Shown here: positions 18,599 through 28,970 of the stretch, piece after piece
Layout of the letters: each line of letters starts with the position of its first letter
Numbering within the stretch: the first letter of the stretch is position 1
Position numbers and translations under genes: made by a program
Assembly: GCA_964590975.1 (NCBI GenBank)
Contig: CAZPXP010000006.1
Location: forward strand, 42,729-106,728
DNA from: an uncultured Ferruginibacter sp.
GTDB taxonomy: Bacteria > Bacteroidota > Bacteroidia > Chitinophagales > Chitinophagaceae
DNA: 64,000 nt
Direction: 5' to 3'
The notes under the pieces: generated by a model
Told to the model about the DNA's origin: nothing
The model's input: the letters and a program-made list of their open reading frames with translations, nothing else
Database searches by the model: none

Positions 18599-19957
18599 AT
18601 GATATATTGGACAAGGTTCAAAAAGGCGGTGCGTTTAGCACTCAGCCCCCTGCTGTTACTATTGTATGCCCCGGGTGCACTGTTTGCACAGGGTGGCAGG
18701 GATACCTTAGCACAAACACTGAAAAACAATGCCACACTGGAAAATATCATCCGGTATGCCCTGAAAAATCAGCCGTTGATACAGCAGTTACAGATCGACG
18801 AGGACATTACAAAATCGCAGATCCGCAGTAAGCTGTCCGACTGGTACCCCCAGGTCAACTTCGGGTATAACTACCAGCGCAACTTCCTGTTGCAAACCAG
18901 CATTATTGCAGGTAACCCGGTAAAATTTGGTGTAAACAATACTTCCAACGCACAGTTTACGCTTTCGCAGCAGATCTTTAACCGCGATGTACTGCTGGCC
19001 GACCGTACCCGCAAGGATGTAGAGCAGCTCTCCGGCCAGAATACGAAATACAGCAAAACCCAACTTGCAGCCAATGTAGCCAAAGCGTTTTACGATGTGC
19101 TCACCACGTTGCAGCAGATCAGTGTAACCAGAGAAGATATCGTTCGCCTCGAAAGAAGCCTCAAAGATGCCGAAAACCAGTACAAAGCCGGTATCGTGGA
19201 TAAGATCGACTATAAACGCGCCACCATATCGCTCAATAATACACGCACAGGCAAAAAAGCGTATGAAGAAACACTGAAGGCAAAACTCGAATATCTGAAA
19301 TCATTAATGGGTTACCCCAACGACCAGGAACTGAAGATCAGCTACGATACCCTGCAAATGGAAAAAGAGATCACCCTCGATACAGCACAGCAGGCCAGCT
19401 ACGCTTCGCGCATCGAATACCAGTTGCTTACTACGCGCAAAAAACTGCTCCAAGCCAACCTCCTGTATAATAAATGGAGTTACCTGCCGAATATCAGTTT
19501 TAACGGGGCCTATAATTTTAACTTCCAGAACAATAAGTTCATCGACCTGTACAGTAAAAATTATCCTACCTCGTTTGCAGCCATTACGCTCTCCTTGCCC
19601 TTATACCAGGGAGGTAAGCGTAAAGAAAGTAAAAAGCAGGCAGAGTGGCAGATCAAAAGGCTCGATCTCGATATTGCCGATCTGAAAACAAATGTGAATG
19701 CAGAATATACCGCAGCACTGGCAAGATATAAGAGTAACCTCAGCAACCTGCTCACGCAGAAAGAAAATACAGACCTCGCAAGAGAAGTATATAACATCAT
19801 CCAGTTACAGTACAAGTCAGGTATCAAAACCTATCTTGAAGTGGTAACCTCAGAAACCGATCTGCGGCTGGCGCGCATCAATTATTACAATGCCCTGTAC
19901 GAAGTACTGTCAAGCAAGATAGACGTTCAGAAAGCGCTGGGGCAATTGAACTACTAA
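18599..19957 (+). CDS. TolC family outer-membrane efflux protein
   Basis: 452 aa. Signal peptide, then the two OEP repeats (LENIIRYALKNQPLIQ...; LEVVTSETDLRLARINYYNALYEV). First gene of an OMF-MFP-RND string. Confidence 0.9.
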   Translation: MIYWTRFKKAVRLALSPLLLLLYAPGALFAQGGRDTLAQTLKNNATLENIIRYALKNQPLIQQLQIDEDITKSQIRSKLSDWYPQVNFGYNYQRNFLLQTSIIAGNPVKFGVNNTSNAQFTLSQQIFNRDVLLADRTRKDVEQLSGQNTKYSKTQLAANVAKAFYDVLTTLQQISVTREDIVRLERSLKDAENQYKAGIVDKIDYKRATISLNNTRTGKKAYEETLKAKLEYLKSLMGYPNDQELKISYDTLQMEKEITLDTAQQASYASRIEYQLLTTRKKLLQANLLYNKWSYLPNISFNGAYNFNFQNNKFIDLYSKNYPTSFAAITLSLPLYQGGKRKESKKQAEWQIKRLDLDIADLKTNVNAEYTAALARYKSNLSNLLTQKENTDLAREVYNIIQLQYKSGIKTYLEVVTSETDLRLARINYYNALYEVLSSKIDVQKALGQLNY

Positions 19958-20024
19958 TGAGCCGTACCGCTGGCTTATGAAAAAGATTTGACAATTATTA
20001 ATAAAATCAAAACACATCAACTGT

Positions 20025-21152
20025 ATGTTTTTAAAAATAACTAAATACCATCCCGTTCTCCTGGCTGCTTTTATCATCAGTTCCTGCGGAGGTAAAAAAC
20101 AGGCGCCACCCGCCGCCCCTCCGCCGGTCAACGTAAAACTGATGAGCGTTACCAGCAGCGATGCGGTATATTATGATGAATACCCTGCAACAGTGGTACC
20201 CCTCAACCAGGTAGAGCTGAAACCACAGGTATCCGGTTTTATAACAGGAGTGCACTTCCAGGATGGCGCGCGTGTAAGAAAGGGCCAGTTACTCTATTCT
20301 ATCGACGCACAACTGTATGGTGCCAATTATGAGCAGGCCATGGCTACCCTCAGCGTGCAGGAAGCCAACGTAGCCAAAGCACAGCGCGAAGCCAACCGGT
20401 ACCACGAGCTGGATAAAAATGAAGCGGTGGCCAAACAACTGGTAGACAATATGGATGCCGCACTCGAAGTGGCAAAGCGCCAGCGCGACGCAGCAAGGGC
20501 AAATGTAAGAGCAGTGCAAACCAGCGTACGCTACACCAAAGTGTTTGCCCCCTTCGACGGGGTGATCGGCATCTCGGCGGTAAAAGTGGGTACGGCAGTT
20601 TCTGCCGGGCAAACCATACTGAACACCGTTTCTACCGACAACCAACTGGCCGTAGATTTTAATATCGACCAGAAAGAGATATTCCGGTTTACCAACCTGA
20701 TCAAAGTACAGAATCCTGCCGACTCCACCTTTACACTCAAGTTCGGAACCGATGTGTATCCATACAATGGTAAGATACTGCTGATCGACCGTGCGGTAGA
20801 CCAGCAAACAGGTTCTATCAAAACACGTCTTGTGTTTCCCAATAAAGAAAACCTGTTAAGGGCAGGCATGAGCGGCACCGTGCGCGTGCTGAACAATGCA
20901 GCCGTAAAATCCATCGTAATACCACATAAAGCCGTTACCGAGCAACTCGGTGAGTTCTTTGTTTACGTTGCGGGCGACAGCAGCAAGGTAAGCCAGCGTA
21001 AGCTGGTACTCGGTCAGGCACTCGGTACAAACATTATCGTAAAAGAAGGATTGAAAGAAGGAGAAAAAATCGTTGTGGAAGGCGTACAGAACCTGCGCGA
21101 AGGAGCGGTCATCAAAACAGAAACCACACCACCGCCACCGGCTGCAAAATAG
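20025..21152 (+). CDS. RND efflux periplasmic adaptor lipoprotein
   Basis: Lipobox LAAFIISSCGG. HlyD-like motifs (VSGFITGVHFQDGARVRKGQLLYSID; YTKVFAPFDGVIG). Confidence 0.9.
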   Translation: MFLKITKYHPVLLAAFIISSCGGKKQAPPAAPPPVNVKLMSVTSSDAVYYDEYPATVVPLNQVELKPQVSGFITGVHFQDGARVRKGQLLYSIDAQLYGANYEQAMATLSVQEANVAKAQREANRYHELDKNEAVAKQLVDNMDAALEVAKRQRDAARANVRAVQTSVRYTKVFAPFDGVIGISAVKVGTAVSAGQTILNTVSTDNQLAVDFNIDQKEIFRFTNLIKVQNPADSTFTLKFGTDVYPYNGKILLIDRAVDQQTGSIKTRLVFPNKENLLRAGMSGTVRVLNNAAVKSIVIPHKAVTEQLGEFFVYVAGDSSKVSQRKLVLGQALGTNIIVKEGLKEGEKIVVEGVQNLREGAVIKTETTPPPPAAK

Positions 21153-21212
21153 GCATACAACATGCCGGTTTGCAATCCTTAATTCTTACAGGGTTCCTTA
21201 AACACAAAAAAA

Positions 21213-24200
21213 ATGATCGCAAATACTTTTATAAAACGGCCCGTTACCGCAATTGTAACATCAATTGTGCTCGTGCTGGTCGGGCTCATTGCACTAACAA
21301 CATTGCCCGTTGCCCAGTACCCCGATGTTACACCCCCCACGGTAACCATATCGGGCAACTTTACCGGTGCTGATGCACAAACGGTAGAACAAACCACCAC
21401 CACAGCTATTGAAACACAGGTAAACGGTGTGCCGGGCATGAGCTATATGTCGAGCAACAGTACCAGCAGTGGGCAGAGCAGCATCAACGTTGTTTTTGAC
21501 GTAGGCACAGACGTAAACATTGCAGCGCTCGATGTACAGAACCGCGTGAGCGTAGCAGAGCCCACGCTTCCCGATGCCGTAAAAAGGCTGGGCCTTACAG
21601 TACGTAAGCGCCAGCCGAGCATCATGATGGCGCTGGGGATCTATTCGCCCAACGGTACGCACGACGCACAGTTTATCGGCAACTTCGCCAACCTCTACAT
21701 TAAAGATGCCTTACAGCGCGTAAAAGGTGTGGGCGATATCATTTCACGTGCAGATGATTTTGGTATGCGTATATGGCTCAATCCCGAAAGGCTGGCCAGC
21801 CTCGGTATGACCCCGGGCGATATCGCAGCAGCGCTTGCCGAGCAGAACCTCCAGGTAGCCGCAGGTACCGTAGGCGGTAATCCGCAGCCCGTTACCCAGA
21901 GCTTTGAGTACAGCGTATTAACCAACAGCCGCCTCAATACAAAGCAGCAGTTTGAAGATATTATCGTACGCTCTTCACCCATAGACGGGAGCGTGATCTA
22001 CCTCAAAGACGTAGCCCGCGTAGAGCTCGGTAAATTCGATTATGGTATCAACGCCTTTATCGATGGTAAGCCCGCAGCCTTTGTACTCATCTACCAGGCC
22101 CCCGGTGCCAACGCCCTCGAAACCTACGATGGGGTGATGAAAGCACTTACCGAAATGAAAAAAACATTTCCCAAAGACCTCGATTTTAAGATTCCCCTCG
22201 AAACAGCTTCCGTTGTACGCGTATCCATCAGGGAAGTACTGCATACCTTCGGCGAAGCCATGATACTCGTGGTGCTGGTAGTATTCCTGTTTCTTCAGAA
22301 CTGGAGAGCCACCCTTATTCCCATACTCGCCATTCCCGTTTCGCTGATCGGTACCTTTATCTTCTTTATTCCCTTTGGCTTTACCATCAACACGCTTACC
22401 CTGTTTGCCTTTGTACTGGCCATCGGTATCGTGGTAGATGATGCCATCGTGGTAGTGGAGGCCGTACAGCATAATATAGACCACTATAAAATGTCGGCCA
22501 GGGAGGCAACCGCCAAGGCCATGAAAGAAATATCCGGGCCGGTTATTGCCATTGCCCTGATCCTTGCAGCAGTGTTCGTTCCCGTTAGCTTTGTGCCCGG
22601 TATCGTGGGGCGCCTCTATCAGCAGTTTGCCATTACCATTGCGGTATCGGTATTGCTGTCGGCATTTGTAGCGTTATCCCTCACCCCCGCACTGTGTACC
22701 ATCATGCTCAAACCATCGAAGGGAGAAGGCGCAAAGATGAACCTGCTCGAAAAATTCTTCTCCAGGTTTAATAAATCCTTTGGTAAACTCTCCAACGCTT
22801 ATACCCGCGGTGTAGCCAAATGGATCAAAGGCACGCCCTATGTGCTGATAATGATGGTTTGCCTCATCGTAGGGCTGGTATTTCTCTTTAAGAGCAAACC
22901 CTCCGGCTTTATTCCCGTTGAAGACGAAGGCCGTTTATATGTAACCTACGAAATGCAGGAAGCCACTTCCACCACACGCAATATCGCGATGGTAAAAGAC
23001 ATTATGGCAAGGGTATCTTCCATGCCCGAAGTACGTACCGTAGGTGGCCTGGCCGGGCTCAACATCATCAGCTTCTCCAACAAATCCAACGTGGGTACCA
23101 TGTTTGTGAACCTGCAGCCATGGGCCGACAGGGAAGGAGCAAAGCACCACGTACAGGCAGTGATCAAAGAAATACAGAAGCGTACAGCCGATATTAAAGA
23201 AGCCAGGGTACTGGCCATTGCACCCCCGGCCATTCCCGGCCTCGGCGCTACCTCGGGCTTTACGTTCGAGTTGCAGCAAACCACCACTACCGATAATGTA
23301 CAGCAATTTGAAGGAGTAGCGCGTAAGTTCCTTGCAGCCGTAAACCAGCGCCCGGAGATTGGCCTGGCATACACGTTCTTTAATGCCAGAACACCAGGCT
23401 ACCAGGTAGATGTTGACCGGGAAAAAACAAAGAAGCTGGGCGTACAGGTAAACGACGTATTCAATTCCCTCTCTACCTTACTGGGCAGCAGCTACGTAAA
23501 CGACTTTAACCTTTACGGACGCAACTTCCGGGTAATGATACAGGCAGACAGCAGTTTTCGCTCCAGTCTCGACCAGATCAACAAGTTCTATGTGCGCAAC
23601 AAAACAGGTGGCATGGTGCCCCTCTCCGCGCTCGTTACTACCAAAGTGGTGGAAAACCCCGCGCTCATTTCACACTATAATATATACCGTTCAGTAGAGA
23701 TCAATGGCACACCCAAACCGGGCTACAGTAGTGGCCAGGCCATACAGGCCCTTAAAGAAGTGGCAGCCAGCACGCTCCCCGCGGGCTATGGGTACGAATT
23801 TTCAGGTATGAGCAGCGAAGAAATAAAAGCCGGTAACAGTACCACAACCATCTTCGCCATTTCGATCATTTTCGTATTCCTCTTTCTTGCCGCGTTGTAT
23901 GAGAGCTGGTCTATACCATTCTCCGTACTCTTTGCTGTTCCGATAGGTGCCTTTGGCTCCATCCTTACGCTTACATTCATTCCCAGCCTGTCCAACAATA
24001 TCTACGCACAGATCGGGCTGATCACGCTGATTGGTCTTGCAGCCAAGAATGCCATCCTCATCGTAGAGTTTGCCAAAGAAAGGGTAGACAGTGGAATGGC
24101 AATTGTACAAGCCACGCTCGAAGCCGTAAAACTCCGCCTGCGGCCGATCATTATGACCTCGCTGGCCTTTATACTCGGGGTATTACCCCTTGCCTTTGCC

Positions 24201-24374
24201 AGTGGAGCAGCCGCCGAATCACGTAAAACAATCGGCTGGACGGTGTTTGGAGGTATGCTTGCAGCCACCTCTCTTGCTATCTTTGTAGTACCGGTACTTT
24301 TTGTGGCCATCGAGAAAATAGCATTAAAAGGAAAGCTCAGGCGCAAACAAAAAGAAACCACGCCACTAACATAA
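21213..24374 (+). CDS. RND multidrug efflux permease (AcrB/HAE1 family)
   Basis: 1053 aa. MIANTFIKRPVTAIVTSIVLVLVG, LAIGIVVDDAIVVVE, LAAKNAILIVEF. Paralogue of 1045-4212. Confidence 0.95.
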   Translation: MIANTFIKRPVTAIVTSIVLVLVGLIALTTLPVAQYPDVTPPTVTISGNFTGADAQTVEQTTTTAIETQVNGVPGMSYMSSNSTSSGQSSINVVFDVGTDVNIAALDVQNRVSVAEPTLPDAVKRLGLTVRKRQPSIMMALGIYSPNGTHDAQFIGNFANLYIKDALQRVKGVGDIISRADDFGMRIWLNPERLASLGMTPGDIAAALAEQNLQVAAGTVGGNPQPVTQSFEYSVLTNSRLNTKQQFEDIIVRSSPIDGSVIYLKDVARVELGKFDYGINAFIDGKPAAFVLIYQAPGANALETYDGVMKALTEMKKTFPKDLDFKIPLETASVVRVSIREVLHTFGEAMILVVLVVFLFLQNWRATLIPILAIPVSLIGTFIFFIPFGFTINTLTLFAFVLAIGIVVDDAIVVVEAVQHNIDHYKMSAREATAKAMKEISGPVIAIALILAAVFVPVSFVPGIVGRLYQQFAITIAVSVLLSAFVALSLTPALCTIMLKPSKGEGAKMNLLEKFFSRFNKSFGKLSNAYTRGVAKWIKGTPYVLIMMVCLIVGLVFLFKSKPSGFIPVEDEGRLYVTYEMQEATSTTRNIAMVKDIMARVSSMPEVRTVGGLAGLNIISFSNKSNVGTMFVNLQPWADREGAKHHVQAVIKEIQKRTADIKEARVLAIAPPAIPGLGATSGFTFELQQTTTTDNVQQFEGVARKFLAAVNQRPEIGLAYTFFNARTPGYQVDVDREKTKKLGVQVNDVFNSLSTLLGSSYVNDFNLYGRNFRVMIQADSSFRSSLDQINKFYVRNKTGGMVPLSALVTTKVVENPALISHYNIYRSVEINGTPKPGYSSGQAIQALKEVAASTLPAGYGYEFSGMSSEEIKAGNSTTTIFAISIIFVFLFLAALYESWSIPFSVLFAVPIGAFGSILTLTFIPSLSNNIYAQIGLITLIGLAAKNAILIVEFAKERVDSGMAIVQATLEAVKLRLRPIIMTSLAFILGVLPLAFASGAAAESRKTIGWTVFGGMLAATSLAIFVVPVLFVAIEKIALKGKLRRKQKETTPLT

Positions 24375-24390
24375 ATTGGTATGTAATAAC

Positions 24391-24420
24391 AACAGCGGCA
24401 GGCATACGCCTGCTGCTGTT
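24391..24420 (+). terminator. Hairpin immediately after the RND pump gene (putative intrinsic terminator)
   Basis: aacagcggcaggc-atac-gcctgctgctgtt: a 13-bp stem with one G:U pair and a 4-nt loop, 17 bp after the stop codon. There is no clear U-tract. Confidence 0.45.
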
Positions 24421-24446
24421 GATTCATAATATTAAATTTACGGATT

Positions 24447-25295
24447 ATGCCACCGCGGAAAGAAGAAACAAGCCAACCCCGTATATTATATTCCTGCTAC
24501 TCAAAGATGAACAGGGAAGGAGAACAGTTTATACCAGAGCACCAGTTTGGTTGTACCCTTGCCGGCAGCCTGGAACTGTACAGCGATGGGAAAACGCAGA
24601 TATATAAAGAAGGCGAGTTCCGGTTTTTCAGAAAGAACAGGCTCGTAAAGTTCATCAAACACCCGCCACCCGGCGGGGAATACAAGTCTATTGCCATACG
24701 CATGGACCAGGGTACACTCAAAGAGATCAGTGCCGAATATAACCTGCACATGGACCAGCCCTATACCGGTGAAAGCGTGGTGCCCCTGCAGCAGCACAAC
24801 CTGCTAAAAAAGTTTGTAGATTCATTAACACCCTATGCCGATGACGAAAGCGAGTTTAGTAAAGTAATTGTGCGGCTTAAGGTAAAAGAAGCCGTGATGA
24901 TCCTGCTCGAAACCAATCCTGCATTAAAAGATACCCTCTTCGATTTTAATGAGCCCGGCAAGATCGATCTCGAAGCGTATATGAACCAGCATTACCTGTT
25001 TAACCTGCACCTCGAACGCTTTGCCTACCTCACGGGCAGGAGCCTTTCTACCTTTAAAAGAGATTTTAAAGACATATTCCACAGTACACCCAACCGTTGG
25101 TTACAGAAAAAGCGGCTCGAAAAAGCCTATTACCAGATAAAAGAGAAGGGCGCTAAAGCATCAGACGTTTACCTCGAAGTGGGTTTTGAAAACCTGTCGC
25201 ACTTTTCCTCTGCCTTTAAATCCGTTTACGGCATTGCACCGTCGAGGCTGTGCGACCATGGCATGATAAATAATGGTGTTAAATCAGATTTTTGA
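24447..25295 (+). CDS. AraC family transcriptional regulator
   Basis: C-terminal double HTH (LERFAYLTGRSLSTFKRDFKDIFHSTPNRWLQKKRLEKAY...VGFENLSHFSSAFKSVYGIAPS). An alternative start lies at 24507. Confidence 0.88.
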   Translation: MPPRKEETSQPRILYSCYSKMNREGEQFIPEHQFGCTLAGSLELYSDGKTQIYKEGEFRFFRKNRLVKFIKHPPPGGEYKSIAIRMDQGTLKEISAEYNLHMDQPYTGESVVPLQQHNLLKKFVDSLTPYADDESEFSKVIVRLKVKEAVMILLETNPALKDTLFDFNEPGKIDLEAYMNQHYLFNLHLERFAYLTGRSLSTFKRDFKDIFHSTPNRWLQKKRLEKAYYQIKEKGAKASDVYLEVGFENLSHFSSAFKSVYGIAPSRLCDHGMINNGVKSDF

Positions 25296-25300
25296 ATTTC

Positions 25301-25705
25301 TTATACTGCAGCCACTAATTCGTAGGGATTGGTAATTGTCCTTTTGCCAAATCGTTTTAATAAAGCGACTTCATTTGATTTGTCAATTTTCTCTTTTTCA
25401 AGAATTTCCTGAACCGCAGGCTGCTTCAAGCCAGGAATACGAGTTTGGAAGAATGGCCAAAGCATCTCGCTTTTATAAATCTTATCTAAATCAGAAAAGC
25501 CTACGATTCGATTGTATTCTTCTGAATGCTTTTTGAAATCGTCTGTGTACTTAAAATACCATTCGCCTTTATCACAATACAATTCTCCTATGCGAATGGC
25601 ATCAACTTTTAGAATAAACCTCGCATCTTCATCATGAGGAAGTTGTACCTGCACCTCAAGATTATCCTCATTCTTACTAAACCAATTTATGATTTTGCGT
25701 AACAT
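25301..25705 (-). CDS. Small protein resembling the HipA N-terminal subdomain (HipS/HipN-like)
   Basis: 134 aa. IGELYCDKGEWYFKYTDDF...MLWPFFQTRIPGLKQPAV...ALLKRFGKRTITNPYEL parallels, by eye, E. coli HipA residues about 12-100 (VGEL...HTFKY...VFNFFDNLLPDS...DLLSEIGRDSVGAV). The start codon is 1 nt from the stop of the upstream kinase gene. Confidence 0.7.
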   Translation of the reverse strand: MLRKIINWFSKNEDNLEVQVQLPHDEDARFILKVDAIRIGELYCDKGEWYFKYTDDFKKHSEEYNRIVGFSDLDKIYKSEMLWPFFQTRIPGLKQPAVQEILEKEKIDKSNEVALLKRFGKRTITNPYELVAAV

Positions 25706-25706
25706 A

Positions 25707-26708
25707 TTAATCTTCTCTTATTTTTTTAAACCTGGTGTTTAAGATCAAGGTTATTAATTTAGATCTTTCCGGGATGAAGAAAGGATAAAATTCTCTGTTC
25801 AGCATTCTAATAATTTTTTCCTCATTCTCAGCTTTTGCTAAATCATCAATAATTTCTTTGTATTCCCTATTATACCGTTTAATAAAATCAATGAGTTGGA
25901 AATGGTTGGCTTGTTTATTAGCCTCAATACTTATTCTTGGACAAGCTTCATCTATGTAATTTACAATTTTCCTGCCACTTTGTGTAAATATTTTCCTAAT
26001 ATTTGCATCGCTATAATTCCACATTAATCCTCTTGCGGAGTCATAAATGGGTGCGAAAGCAGGTAACTTCGATGTTTTTTTCTTAGTGTCAATAACTCCC
26101 CAATTATAAAAATGACGATCATTATTACCTGCCAGAGCATCAAAGGTAAGCATTTTAATTAACTCAACTATCAGATTCTCAAAGCATTGTGGAAATACTG
26201 CTCTGATAGAGTCTTTAATAAACTCAAAAGTAAATAGCTCTCTGGCTGTAGATTTGTCGTTCGCAATTTTTTCTGCCAGAAGCATATCTCCTAAATGCTC
26301 ACCACATATTTCAGCTCCATGAATGAGTTTCTCATCTTTATTTAGAAAATACCTGCTAAGAAATCGTACTTGAGAATTTGCATTTACCAATTTTATTTCA
26401 TTCATTCGTAACCCTAAGACTTGTCCAATACGATTAATCATGTACTCTATTATCGACTCATGTGGATACCATTTCTCGGCTGTTTTAGCAATATAAGAAG
26501 GCCAGGAGCTTGAGGATGATTTTCTTATAGTGGCATCTTTTTGATAAAAATATGCTTTGATAAACTGTTTTGGAGCATCTCCATCCAGATCATAATTCTT
26601 GACAACGTATTCATTCTCCCTTAGTTGAGGAATTGTATGTTCATCATAAATTTTACCCGAACAATGTATCGAGCGCTCAATTCTTAAATTTCCTCTTGAA
26701 TTATGCAT
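25707..26708 (-). CDS. HipA-like Ser/Thr kinase core (lacks the N-terminal subdomain)
   Basis: Catalytic-loop-like LTFDALAGNNDRHFYNWGV (compare HipA IGATDGHAKNFSV) and FAPIYDSARGL (compare TPFYDIISAF). The ATG at 26708 (MHNSRGN) is preferred over the ORF-track start at 26768. Confidence 0.75.
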   Translation of the reverse strand: MHNSRGNLRIERSIHCSGKIYDEHTIPQLRENEYVVKNYDLDGDAPKQFIKAYFYQKDATIRKSSSSSWPSYIAKTAEKWYPHESIIEYMINRIGQVLGLRMNEIKLVNANSQVRFLSRYFLNKDEKLIHGAEICGEHLGDMLLAEKIANDKSTARELFTFEFIKDSIRAVFPQCFENLIVELIKMLTFDALAGNNDRHFYNWGVIDTKKKTSKLPAFAPIYDSARGLMWNYSDANIRKIFTQSGRKIVNYIDEACPRISIEANKQANHFQLIDFIKRYNREYKEIIDDLAKAENEEKIIRMLNREFYPFFIPERSKLITLILNTRFKKIRED

Positions 26709-27067
26709 TATTTCGAATATAAATTGAATATTTATACAATATAAGCAGTCTGTCTCAAAAAAGTGCATCTATGCATTTAGCAATTGTACAGAGGATATTT
26801 ATATTTTATTGTTGAATATACGCTATGTATGCTTATAAAATTTCATTGTTCGCCTTGCCGAAGTAGATTAGATTACTACCTCAAGGTTTCTGTCCGCCAG
26901 TTTTTACTCCCTGTATAGCTAATAACTACTTTAGTGGCAACCTGCGCCAATCTTTATGCTATAGTTGCATTGATACCGTTGATGTGCCCGTTACCAGTAT
27001 TTACTTTATCGTTTGGTTTTACTCATGTTTTATTATTTTGTTAATTCAGAGACTAAACTTCAGACCG

Positions 27068-28597
27068 TCACGGCATTTTATATAACCCGAATTCAGACAG
27101 GGTAGGGTTGAGGCGGGAAGACAGTATGCTTAGCCTTACCTCCCTTGCAGTAACCGGGGCAAACCTGGCCAGCCTTTTATAACCTATCGTAGATCCTTTT
27201 GCCAGTAACTTCCATTCAGTACCCTCTTTATATTCCAGCACAAAGCTTTCGATGCGCTGACCAATGGCAATGTTTTCCTGTAAACACAACACATCAAATG
27301 ATTTGGCAGCAGGCAGGGTAAAAGTGATGGTAGTCGTCGTATCCTTCCGTGCAGTAGTAAAATATGTAGCATATTTTCCATCCAGCAGTGCTTCCGTATG
27401 TATTCCATTCGCAGTTTTTACCACAGCACCCTTTGCAAGGTTTACAGCAAATACCTTATCCAGCAAACCTCCAAACCCCTTGAGGTGCCTTACATCAGCA
27501 TCAGCCAGCAAGCCACGTTTATCAGGCGGAATATTTAAAAGCAGTACGCTGTTATAGCCCACCGAGCTGAAATAGATATCCAGCAGTTTTTCAGGCGTTT
27601 TTACAGCATCATCTTCCTTAGTATGATAGAACCAGCCCGGCCTGATAGACACATCCGTTTCAGCAGGATACCAGACCAGGCCCTTTGCACCCATAAGCAT
27701 GGCGCGGCTGCCGAGATCGCTGCCGGTCTTATCTCCCGAAGGGGCGTATGCAGGATCCTTTTGAGAAGCATCCGCAATCCTCTGTATCATATTATCATCA
27801 GCAGGTATTACGCTCCACTCCATCTCGCGGCCATACCCGCTTTCAGTACCTACCCATCTTACATCAGGGCCCATAATAGCAATAACGGCAGCCGGTTGCA
27901 GTTTCCTTATCAGGCCGTACCAGCGGTTAAAATCATATACCTGTTTTTTACCGTTCGGTCCCTCACCATTGGCGCCGTCAAACCAAACCTCGTCAATCCG
28001 GCCGTATTGTGTAAGCAGTTCCGTAAGCTGGTTAGCAAAATAATCATTATACGCTTCCGTGCCATAGAGTTTTGAGTTCCTGTCCCACGGTGAAAGATAA
28101 ACGCCAAAGCCAACGCCCATTTGCCTGCATGCGCCAGCTACTTCCTTTACCACATCTCCTTTGCCATTTTTCCAGGAGCTGTTCTTTACCGAGTGTTCCG
28201 TGTATTTACTGGGCCATAAGCAAAAACCATCATGGTGCTTTGCCGTAATGATCACCTGCTTAAAGCCTGCATCCTTAACCGTCTTTACCCATTGCTTCGC
28301 ATCCAGCAACGCGGGGTTAAATATTTGGGGATCTTCAGTTCCATCCCCCCATTCCTTATCCGTAAAAGTATTGACGCCAAAATGAAAGAACGCCGTCAGC
28401 TCCAGCCTTTGCCAGCGCAATTGCCGGGCACTTGGAGTAACAGCCGCCGCTTTGCTGATGATAGTGGCAGCATCAGCACTAGGCGATAATAGAACATAGT
28501 TGGTACCCGGTTTGTTACCCTGTGCAGGTAATAATAAACTGCAGCAGTTAAGCAGCGCCAGGAAGACACCCGCTTTTTTGCACCATGATTTTCTCAT
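27068..28597 (-). CDS. Secreted alpha-L-fucosidase (GH29) with C-terminal discoidin-like domain
   Basis: FHFGVNTFTDKEWGDG...AGFKQVIITAKHHDGFCLWPSKYT...DEVWFDGANGEG is the GH29 signature region. The C-terminal approximately 130 aa is beta-sandwich-like. Confidence 0.9.
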   Translation of the reverse strand: MRKSWCKKAGVFLALLNCCSLLLPAQGNKPGTNYVLLSPSADAATIISKAAAVTPSARQLRWQRLELTAFFHFGVNTFTDKEWGDGTEDPQIFNPALLDAKQWVKTVKDAGFKQVIITAKHHDGFCLWPSKYTEHSVKNSSWKNGKGDVVKEVAGACRQMGVGFGVYLSPWDRNSKLYGTEAYNDYFANQLTELLTQYGRIDEVWFDGANGEGPNGKKQVYDFNRWYGLIRKLQPAAVIAIMGPDVRWVGTESGYGREMEWSVIPADDNMIQRIADASQKDPAYAPSGDKTGSDLGSRAMLMGAKGLVWYPAETDVSIRPGWFYHTKEDDAVKTPEKLLDIYFSSVGYNSVLLLNIPPDKRGLLADADVRHLKGFGGLLDKVFAVNLAKGAVVKTANGIHTEALLDGKYATYFTTARKDTTTTITFTLPAAKSFDVLCLQENIAIGQRIESFVLEYKEGTEWKLLAKGSTIGYKRLARFAPVTAREVRLSILSSRLNPTLSEFGLYKMP

Positions 28598-28715
28598 GAA
28601 ACAAAGTTGCTGCTTTTAGATACAAAATACCTCCTCCTTACAAAAATTGGTATCGTATTTGTATTTGCAGGATAAAATAATAACCCTTACATTACTAAAA
28701 CTTAAAAAAGCAATT

Positions 28716-28970
28716 ATGGACATTCTCATCGTTCTCTTTATCGGTGCCGTAGCCGGGTGGCTGGGCAGCCAGATCTTCAGAGGCAGCAGTCTCGGCCTGC
28801 CTGGTAATATAGTAATCGGCATCCTGGGTAGTTTTGTAGGGTCGTGGACTTTAAGAAAGCTGGGTGTAAGTTTTGGTGGTGGATGGGTAGGCGCCATACT
28901 TACAGGCGCACTCGGCGCCATCATTATCCTCGCCATCATTAACCTGATTTTCCGAACGTCGCGGAATTAA
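28716..28970 (+). CDS. GlsB/YeaQ/YmgE family small membrane stress protein
   Basis: MDILIVLFIGAVAGWLGSQIF...GNIVIGILGSFVG...ILTGALGAIIILAI, the characteristic glycine-zipper 3-TM pattern. The upstream extension in the ORF track is unlikely to be coding. Confidence 0.85.
   Translation: MDILIVLFIGAVAGWLGSQIFRGSSLGLPGNIVIGILGSFVGSWTLRKLGVSFGGGWVGAILTGALGAIIILAIINLIFRTSRN

Follow-up and report, generated by a model that had tools for sequence, protein, structure and literature searches.

We describe here a pair of genes, encoding a HipA-like kinase and a small HipS-like protein, in a 64,000-nucleotide stretch of DNA (the window) from an uncultured Ferruginibacter sp. (GenBank assembly GCA_964590975.1, contig CAZPXP010000006.1, positions 42,729 to 106,728 of the forward strand). 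Both open reading frames (ORFs) are on the minus strand in head-to-tail order, the kinase gene first and the HipS-like gene second. The features of the locus are given below, with conservation taken from the 69 related loci in which both ORFs could be delimited:

25255..27067, no strand assigned: islet of low guanine-plus-cytosine (GC) content, about 1.8 kb, that holds only the two genes (GC profile; left edge inferred)
26709..27067, minus strand: upstream spacer of 359 bp, AT-rich (33% GC), without a credible small ORF
26709..26768, minus strand: in-frame 5' extension of the longest kinase ORF, 20 codons, absent from all 79 homologues
25707..26708, minus strand: kinase gene, 333 amino acids plus stop; core-only Ser/Thr kinase of the HipA superfamily, HipI/HipJ-like, without HipA N-subdomain-1
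26568..26588, minus strand: predicted Gly-rich (ATP-phosphate) loop of the kinase, L41-D-G-D-A-P-K47, each position kept in 66-69 of 69 sequences
26100..26129, minus strand: catalytic loop of the kinase, G194-N-N-D197-R-H199-F-Y-N202-W203, at least 95% conserved per position in 69 sequences
26028..26057, minus strand: Mg-binding motif of the kinase, F218-A-P-I-Y-D223-S-A-R-G227, with D223 at least 95% conserved in 69 sequences
25703..25709, minus strand: gene junction TAA-T-ATG with a 1-nucleotide (nt) spacer (sequence; four independent assemblies)
25301..25705, minus strand: HipS-like gene, 134 amino acids plus stop (Couple_hipA, PDC-M03B, predicted fold)
25630-25705, minus strand: N-terminal extension of the HipS-like protein, MLRKxxNWFSK..., residues 1-25, predicted to be disordered (predicted local distance difference test, pLDDT, 42-45), without a counterpart in HipS
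25418..25462, minus strand: most conserved patch of the HipS-like protein, L82-W-P-F-F-Q-T-R-I-P-G-L-K-Q-P96 (conservation in 69 sequences)

Counted from its first ATG, the longest kinase ORF (25707..26768, minus strand) would encode 353 amino acids. Alignment with 19 and then with 79 homologues placed the start at the second ATG, at 26708 (MHNSRGNLRIE...), and because the homologues all begin at the equivalent position, the product was taken to be 333 amino acids long. This agrees with the length given in an earlier sequence-only reading of the same DNA, and the 20-codon extension is, from the alignment, probably not translated. At the junction, one T (25706) separates the kinase stop codon TAA (25709-25707) from the ATG (25705-25703) that opens the 134-amino-acid ORF ending at 25301. 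The sequence-only reading had placed this small ORF one nucleotide past the kinase stop and had singled out GELY, WYFKY, WPFFQTRIPG and LLKRFGKRTITNP within it, as well as GNNDRHFYNWGV (residues 194-205) and FAPIYDSARG (residues 218-227) in the kinase; the position and all of these motifs were recovered. The identical two-gene junction was present in four separately assembled bioreactor metagenome runs, and the 1-nt spacer suggests translational coupling.

A promoter is presumably located in the upstream spacer; a scan for sigma-70 promoters and terminators, which does not cover Bacteroidota promoters, returned a number of sites not above that in shuffled sequence. The spacer contains no ORF of at least 50 amino acids, its short ORFs (24-44 amino acids) look spurious, and its DNA was not conserved among homologous loci. 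No RNA family was found in the window with Rfam, and the runs holding the sequence were of DNA type or unclassified, with none labelled RNA.

The kinase and its HipS-like partner

The kinase matched the Pfam family HipA_C from about residue 86 onward (43.5 bits, cut-off 30.5; E = 3.9e-11). When it was compared with the PADLOC models at E <= 1, nine PDC-M03A profiles were matched, the best at 7.2e-32. An AlphaFold2 model of the kinase had a pLDDT of 90.7 and a predicted template-modelling score (pTM) of 0.90. In a Foldseek fold search, CtkA was the top match (target template-modelling score, TMt, ~0.8), followed by HipT of Legionella pneumophila, then HipA, then HipT of Escherichia coli, all with a probability of 1.00, and a sequence-profile search of the PDB gave the same ranking (CtkA, E = 1.2e-6; HipT, E = 0.03). 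Profile alignment with hhalign paired kinase residues D197, H199, N202 and D223 with D309, H311, N314 and D332 of E. coli HipA, in the HipA order; the catalytic loop aligned with the NFDRHNGNW motif of CtkA, and D223 with the aspartate of the CtkA IFD motif. By its intact motifs, the kinase is predicted to be catalytically competent.

The Gly-rich loop was assigned by motif order, as it stands ahead of the conserved K75/K79 and the catalytic loop in the manner of HipA and HipT, and not by superposition. About 40 residues precede its LDGDAPK sequence, and HipA N-subdomain-1 is missing from the kinase. The L, G, A, P and K of the loop were invariant in 69 of 69 family members. None of the 69 sequences has a serine or threonine within LDGDAPK, and the flanking positions are variable. 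Because the loop has no serine or threonine, an autophosphorylation switch of the HipA/HipT type is probably absent from it.

The small protein matched Pfam Couple_hipA (31.4 bits, cut-off 22.5; E = 2.9e-7) and scored slightly below the cut-off of NCBIfam couple_hipA (27.3 against 27.8). Both genes thus exceeded the Pfam cut-offs for the families first suspected from the letters alone. The small protein also matched PADLOC PDC-M03B (4.4e-17), spanning only positions 24-118 of the 232 in that profile. Its AlphaFold2 model had a pLDDT of 78.7, and the top Foldseek matches were HipS of L. pneumophila (8ezr_A) and HipS of E. coli O127 (7ab3_B), with a TMt of 0.78-0.79, followed by the N-domain of HipA. 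HipS was found by the fold search only, a PDB sequence-profile search with the HipS-like alignment having given nothing meaningful. In hhalign, residues 29-122 were colinear with HipA residues 3-96, and residues ~26-134 are predicted to adopt the fold of HipS and HipA N-subdomain-1. No HIRAN or other further domain was found in the 134-amino-acid protein by a domain search in which Nostoc HipN, used as a control, did match HIRAN.

Within the most conserved patch, L82, W83, P84, F85, F86, R89, I90, P91, G92 and Q95 were present in 69 of 69 HipS-like sequences, and hhalign placed the patch on HipA residues 57-67 (VFNFFDNLLPD). In the HipBST system, HipS occupies the place of HipA N-subdomain-1 and neutralises HipT by means of a Glu63/Trp65 wedge at the Gly-rich loop (PMC10627512). 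The alignment suggests that the L82-P96 patch corresponds roughly to the HipS segment bearing this wedge (PMC10627512), a position that supports silencing of the kinase by the HipS-like protein. The disordered N-terminal extension, in which K4, W8 and K11 are conserved family-wide, is a possible degron or second contact with the kinase.

Conservation, mobility and neighbours of the two-gene unit

Database searches returned 882 relatives of the kinase and 469 of the small protein, and those with a named source were all from Bacteroidota (Chitinophagaceae, Sphingobacteriales and others). When one genome per species was scanned, relatives turned up in at least 218 genomes, mostly of free-living environmental Bacteroidota, and 80 loci were taken for comparison. 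In each of the 76 loci with enough downstream DNA, the kinase gene was succeeded by a same-strand homologue of the small protein; the remaining four end at contig edges. The partner was 127-145 amino acids long in 69 of 69 loci and was never fused to the kinase, never extended and never found with HIRAN. The spacing between kinase and partner ranged from -32 to +16 nt in these loci (modes +1, -4, +2 and -7), with a bias to small values from choosing the in-frame ATG closest to the kinase stop, and the relative frame varied. At about three-quarters of the loci, an independent tblastn alignment started in the first residues of the partner, a few to ~30 nt past the kinase alignment.

A profile search of 1.84 billion cluster representatives gave 1486 relatives, with 217 clusters (50% identity) at E <= 1e-30, and the best 150 of the 1486 representatives were all at most 382 amino acids long. 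Pairwise distances for kinase and partner were correlated across the 69 pairs (r = 0.80), and the mean divergence was 0.477 for the kinase and 0.482 for the partner. GNNDRHFYNW, D223, LDGDAPK and LWPFF..RIPGL.QP were conserved at 95% or more at nearly all positions, at an overall identity of 42-81%. By this pattern of sequence conservation, both proteins are under clear purifying selection.

No Xre/HipB-type helix-turn-helix (HTH) gene adjoins the cassette, upstream or downstream on the same strand. When flanking ORFs were clustered across loci, only the two genes and their antisense shadow ORFs recurred, and the nearest neighbours (67 upstream, 69 downstream) were mixed, with no Pfam family in more than three and no HTH partner. 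The AraC-family gene of the window (24447-25295, plus strand; Pfam HTH_18 and ExsA_N) is convergent and ends 5 nt from the HipS-like stop codon. The ORF and Pfam survey therefore bore out the sequence-only reading, in which no HTH gene was adjacent and the nearest regulator was an AraC gene on the opposite strand. The bipartite module proposed there, with the kinase first, an N-subdomain-like protein second and no HipB partner, was found in the relatives too.

The cassette has a GC content of 34% (0.31-0.35 inside), against 46% for the whole window, ~0.46-0.52 (about 50% overall) in the flanks and roughly 46-50% for the genome. In 48 of 67 related loci the cassette was lower in GC than its flanks; the median difference was -6.4 points. 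The low-GC islet is probably a horizontally acquired two-gene cassette, and its being AT-richer than the flanks in most hosts indicates that it travels as a two-gene unit. The AraC protein runs 13 amino acids (DHGMINNGVKSDF, 25255-25295) beyond the alignment end (residue 269) of a 65%-identical, 271-amino-acid homologue, and this overrun starts exactly where GC begins to drop. From these sequences, the left edge of the cassette may lie near 25255, and the native 3' end or stop codon of the AraC gene may have given way to inserted sequence. A search for flanking direct or inverted repeats at the cassette gave only short, chance-level matches, and for an empty-site comparison the closest AraC homologues were at most 67% identical and not syntenic.

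The kinase/HipS-like pair was carried by two IMG/VR contigs, and PHROG matches were found to phrog_8728 for the kinase and to phrog_8026 (246-amino-acid profile, 4e-13) for the HipS-like part of the partner. The kinase also matched phrog_26212 weakly (E = 1e-4); this 547-position profile could represent a phage-borne fused kinase of the HipL type (kinase-HipS-HIRAN). On one IMG/VR contig (L086, 5378-8215), as read from translations only, the pair lies directly downstream of a 105-amino-acid ORF resembling Phd/YefM-type antitoxins and is followed by a 172-amino-acid RadC/JAB-like ORF, with a transposase-like fragment further upstream. The plasmid collection gave one distant match only, to a hipIN pair on a Nostoc plasmid.

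By a rough count from family tables, with no proper enrichment test, ~10% of the immediate neighbours in related loci are defence or mobile-element genes. The defence-like neighbours, which are suggestive, include type I and type IIG restriction-modification genes, NucC, AbiL, Mokosh-like helicases and HNH. Six related loci share a nearby ORF of ~535 amino acids resembling Eco57I/MmeI-type methylases. The gene immediately upstream of the cassette is dnaA in two related loci, and the one immediately downstream is rnpA (RNase P protein) in two; some insertions thus adjoin core genes.

Known Hip systems, proposed function and alternatives

Hip kinases have been sorted by operon type by Gerdes, Baerentsen and Brodersen (2021, mBio; PMC8262856). 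Their clade XI holds four short core-only kinase families of 279-321 amino acids, HipG, HipM, HipI and HipJ, as well as the fused HipL, in which kinase, HipS and HIRAN are joined. Three of the four families have downstream partners (hipIN, hipJS and hipMP): in hipIN the partner HipN combines a HipS-like part with HIRAN (14 modules), and in hipJS it consists of HipS only (2 modules). For hipJS and hipIN it was proposed, without a test, that the HipS-like parts neutralise the kinases and that the modules may have a role in abortive infection, and hipJS was suggested to have originated from hipIN by loss of HIRAN (PMC8262856). The PADLOC candidate PDC-M03, a HipA protein with a HIRAN protein, is of the hipIN type and was still handled as a prediction in a 2025 study (PMC11706625). 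No experimental test of hipIN, hipJS or hipL modules was found in the literature searched. The kinase-first order stressed in the sequence-only reading is real, but its novelty was overstated, as the layout was described in 2021 (PMC8262856) and hipIN is already listed by PADLOC as PDC-M03.

The window pair has the architecture of hipJS with hipIN-like sequences, a layout that is already known. As in hipJS, a short core-only kinase with its Gly-rich loop near the N terminus is encoded first, the downstream partner is HipS only, and there is neither HTH nor HIRAN. The window family differs from hipJS in kinase length (~330-345 amino acids, 333 in the window, against the 279-321 quoted for HipG, HipI, HipJ and HipM) and in the affinity of the partner: the published HipS branches with HipBST HipS and the HipA N-domain, whereas the window partner favours HipN-type profiles (PDC-M03B, 4e-17, and phrog_8026, 4e-13, against 3e-7 for Couple_hipA). 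These are hints only that the Bacteroidota family of the window lies outside the two published hipJS modules, HipJ having been compared by description only.

With hipIN (PDC-M03) the window pair shares the kinase-first order, adjacent or overlapping genes, the match to PDC-M03A and the HipS-like half of PDC-M03B. It differs in having no HIRAN, either in the window or in the 69 relatives, and in a partner of 127-145 rather than ~230-260 amino acids; with HIRAN absent, the DNA-end sensing function proposed for that domain would be missing from the window module. Compared with the hipIN pair of Nostoc plasmid pn5, the kinase had 25% identity (E = 1e-11) and the HipS-like protein had 25% identity to the N-terminal half of HipN (E = 1e-7). 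The Nostoc pair (Nostoc sp. UHCC 0926, L087 217-1922) encodes a 308-amino-acid HipA-like protein and a 260-amino-acid HIRAN protein, with a 4-nt overlap, and lies at the beginning of a mobilizable plasmid of 37 kb, next to a DUF499 gene.

In hipBST of E. coli O127:H6 and L. pneumophila, as in the window, the kinase lacks N-subdomain-1 and a separate protein of the HipS fold supplies it. However, hipS lies upstream of hipT in that system, whereas the kinase precedes the HipS-like gene at 76 of 76 informative loci here; a HipB gene is present there and is found neither in the window operon nor conserved in relatives; and autophosphorylation sites of the Ser57/Ser59 type have no equivalent in the window Gly-rich loop, as assigned by motif order. 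In addition, the sequence similarity of the window kinase to HipT is weak (E = 0.03), and the window small protein has the extra conserved 25-amino-acid N-terminal extension. HipA of E. coli K-12 hipBA belongs to the same kinase superfamily and has the same catalytic residues, and its residues 3-96 are colinear with the small protein, but there the N-subdomain is fused N-terminally within HipA, the antitoxin is the HTH protein HipB, and the autophosphorylated Ser150 has no counterpart in the window kinase. A two-gene, HTH-less module built on a HipA-like kinase is also known in PDC-M66/DS-6, a stand-alone anti-phage pair in which the kinase is toxic and a DUF3037 partner neutralises it (PMC12548924). 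That partner is not HipS-like, and in the PADLOC comparison the window kinase matched PDC-M03A only. CtkA of Helicobacter pylori (3AKJ/3AKK/3AKL) is the closest solved structure and PDB sequence to the window kinase, at ~16% sequence identity.

We consider it probable, by analogy, that the pair is a stand-alone mobile module of the hipJS/hipIN type (clade XI) in which the HipS-like partner inhibits a toxic kinase, with toxin-antitoxin, abortive-infection or addiction behaviour. Silencing by the partner and the toxin role are drawn from HipBST (PMC10627512) and the DUF3037 pair (PMC12548924). In this scheme, the HipS-like protein would bind the kinase beside the Gly-rich loop and keep it inactive, as HipS does with HipT. 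Should the partner be lost or displaced, whether by turnover, by phage infection or because the cassette itself is lost, the kinase would be free to phosphorylate an essential target, and growth would be arrested. By analogy, that target is probably a translational one such as an aminoacyl-tRNA synthetase. With no DNA-binding protein in the module, HipB-type transcriptional autoregulation is probably lacking. The genomic hallmarks of toxin-antitoxin modules that were seen are the mobile two-gene cassette, its low GC and some defence-gene neighbours.

Several points weigh against this interpretation. Toxicity, neutralisation, binding and defence are all argued from analogy. The homologous N-subdomain-1 of HipA belongs to an active enzyme and not to an inhibitor, so that homology alone does not tell whether the effect is positive or negative. 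The gene for the putative antitoxin is the later of the two, and its rate of evolution does not exceed that of the kinase, an atypical pattern for an antitoxin. Within the conserved patch, the invariant W83 aligns with HipA F58, and HipS residues 63-65 may by numbering lie nearer to Q87-R89. Few viral contigs and almost no entries in the plasmid collection carry the pair; defence-like genes make up only ~10% of neighbours elsewhere, and in the window an efflux-pump/AraC cluster lies on one side and a fucosidase on the other. Finally, the closest solved kinase, CtkA, is not a known toxin.

The main rival, which we regard as unlikely although it is far from negligible, is a split two-subunit kinase: the HipS-like protein would be an obligatory structural or activating subunit of a signalling or stress kinase, with no toxin-antitoxin relation or with other regulation. 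The homology and colinearity of the small protein with HipA residues 3-96 would be expected of such a subunit, as would the strict 1:1 pairing, tight translational coupling and equal evolutionary rates of the two genes. The lack of a labile-antitoxin signature or DNA-binding domain points the same way, and a kinase-first order is unusual for type II modules. However, the only free-standing homologues that have been studied, HipS of E. coli O127 and Legionella, are antitoxins (PMC10627512), and no solved structure matched the predicted fold of the small protein better. A patchy, AT-rich, context-independent cassette also fits a selfish or defence module better than housekeeping signalling.

It is improbable that the kinase is a non-toxic or secreted effector like CtkA, for which the small protein would serve as chaperone or accessory. 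CtkA, which has been described as a secreted pro-inflammatory kinase, is the top match by both PDB sequence profile and fold. However, it is itself a member of the HipA superfamily, so its likeness says little on biology; at least 218 species of Bacteroidota, most of them free-living in the environment, carry the family, and the partner is predicted to fold like HipS. A three-part system with the neighbouring AraC regulator in the role of HipB is less probable still. The AraC gene has an HTH domain and ends within 5 nt of the HipS-like stop, but it is convergent, has host-like GC and lies beside an efflux-pump cluster. AraC-type HTH families were outside the top 25 families listed for either side of related loci, where no family exceeded three of 67 or 69, and close AraC homologues occur in unrelated contexts without the cassette; on these grounds AraC was rejected as a partner. 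A single frameshifted or decaying gene, whether a hipA- or hipL-like fusion or a functionless hipIN remnant, is suggested by the mere 1-nt gap and by the existence of fused HipL proteins and had been named in the sequence-only reading as an alternative, but it is excluded because the motifs are conserved and two ORFs, each with its own stop and start and in varying relative frames, are kept in 76 of 76 informative genomes, with the identical junction in four assemblies, purifying selection on both proteins, no fusion-sized protein among the best 150 cluster representatives, and a domain order (core, then N-subdomain) that is the reverse of hipA.

Within the hipJS/hipIN-type interpretation, a more specific proposal can be made, which we advance tentatively and hold to be doubtful in this full form. 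The large Bacteroidota family may be a distinct, HIRAN-less offshoot of hipIN rather than part of the two-member HipJ, in which an invariant acidic LDGDAPK has replaced the autophosphorylatable loop and the partner has gained the disordered MLRKxxNWFSK peptide, possibly as a degron or trigger sensor. Such a module would be a minimal, sensor-less system of anti-phage abortive infection, and its target might lie outside the known aminoacyl-tRNA synthetases.

The kinase-first Hip modules hipIN, hipJS and hipL were predicted in 2021, and hipIN now figures among the defence candidates. No other HipS-only version met in this analysis was as abundant or as uniform as the Bacteroidota family. With two small genes, no sensor domain and no DNA-binding protein, the pair offers a clean and convenient model for kinase-first modules, suited to asking whether a free-standing N-subdomain inhibits or completes a Hip kinase, what the kinase phosphorylates and whether so minimal a pair defends against phage. 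For annotation, it should be named a hipJS/hipIN-type module rather than a broken hipA.

Flanking genes in the window

As read from translations, the cluster at 18599-25295 on the plus strand resembles an efflux system of the resistance-nodulation-division (RND) type followed by the AraC-family regulator, with an ORF like a periplasmic adaptor at 20025-21152 and one like an AcrB-type pump at 21213-24374. On the other flank are two ordinary host genes, one for an alpha-L-fucosidase that includes an F5/8 type C domain and one for a small transglycosylase-associated membrane protein:

27068-28597 and 28647-28970: fucosidase and transglycosylase-associated genes (precomputed Pfam matches on an identical metagenome contig)

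Beyond these, 29140-53058 holds very large ORFs in succession (1494, 1426, 617, 2001, 581 and 1473 amino acids), the first of which, of 1494 amino acids, reads as a repeat-rich secreted or cell-surface protein.

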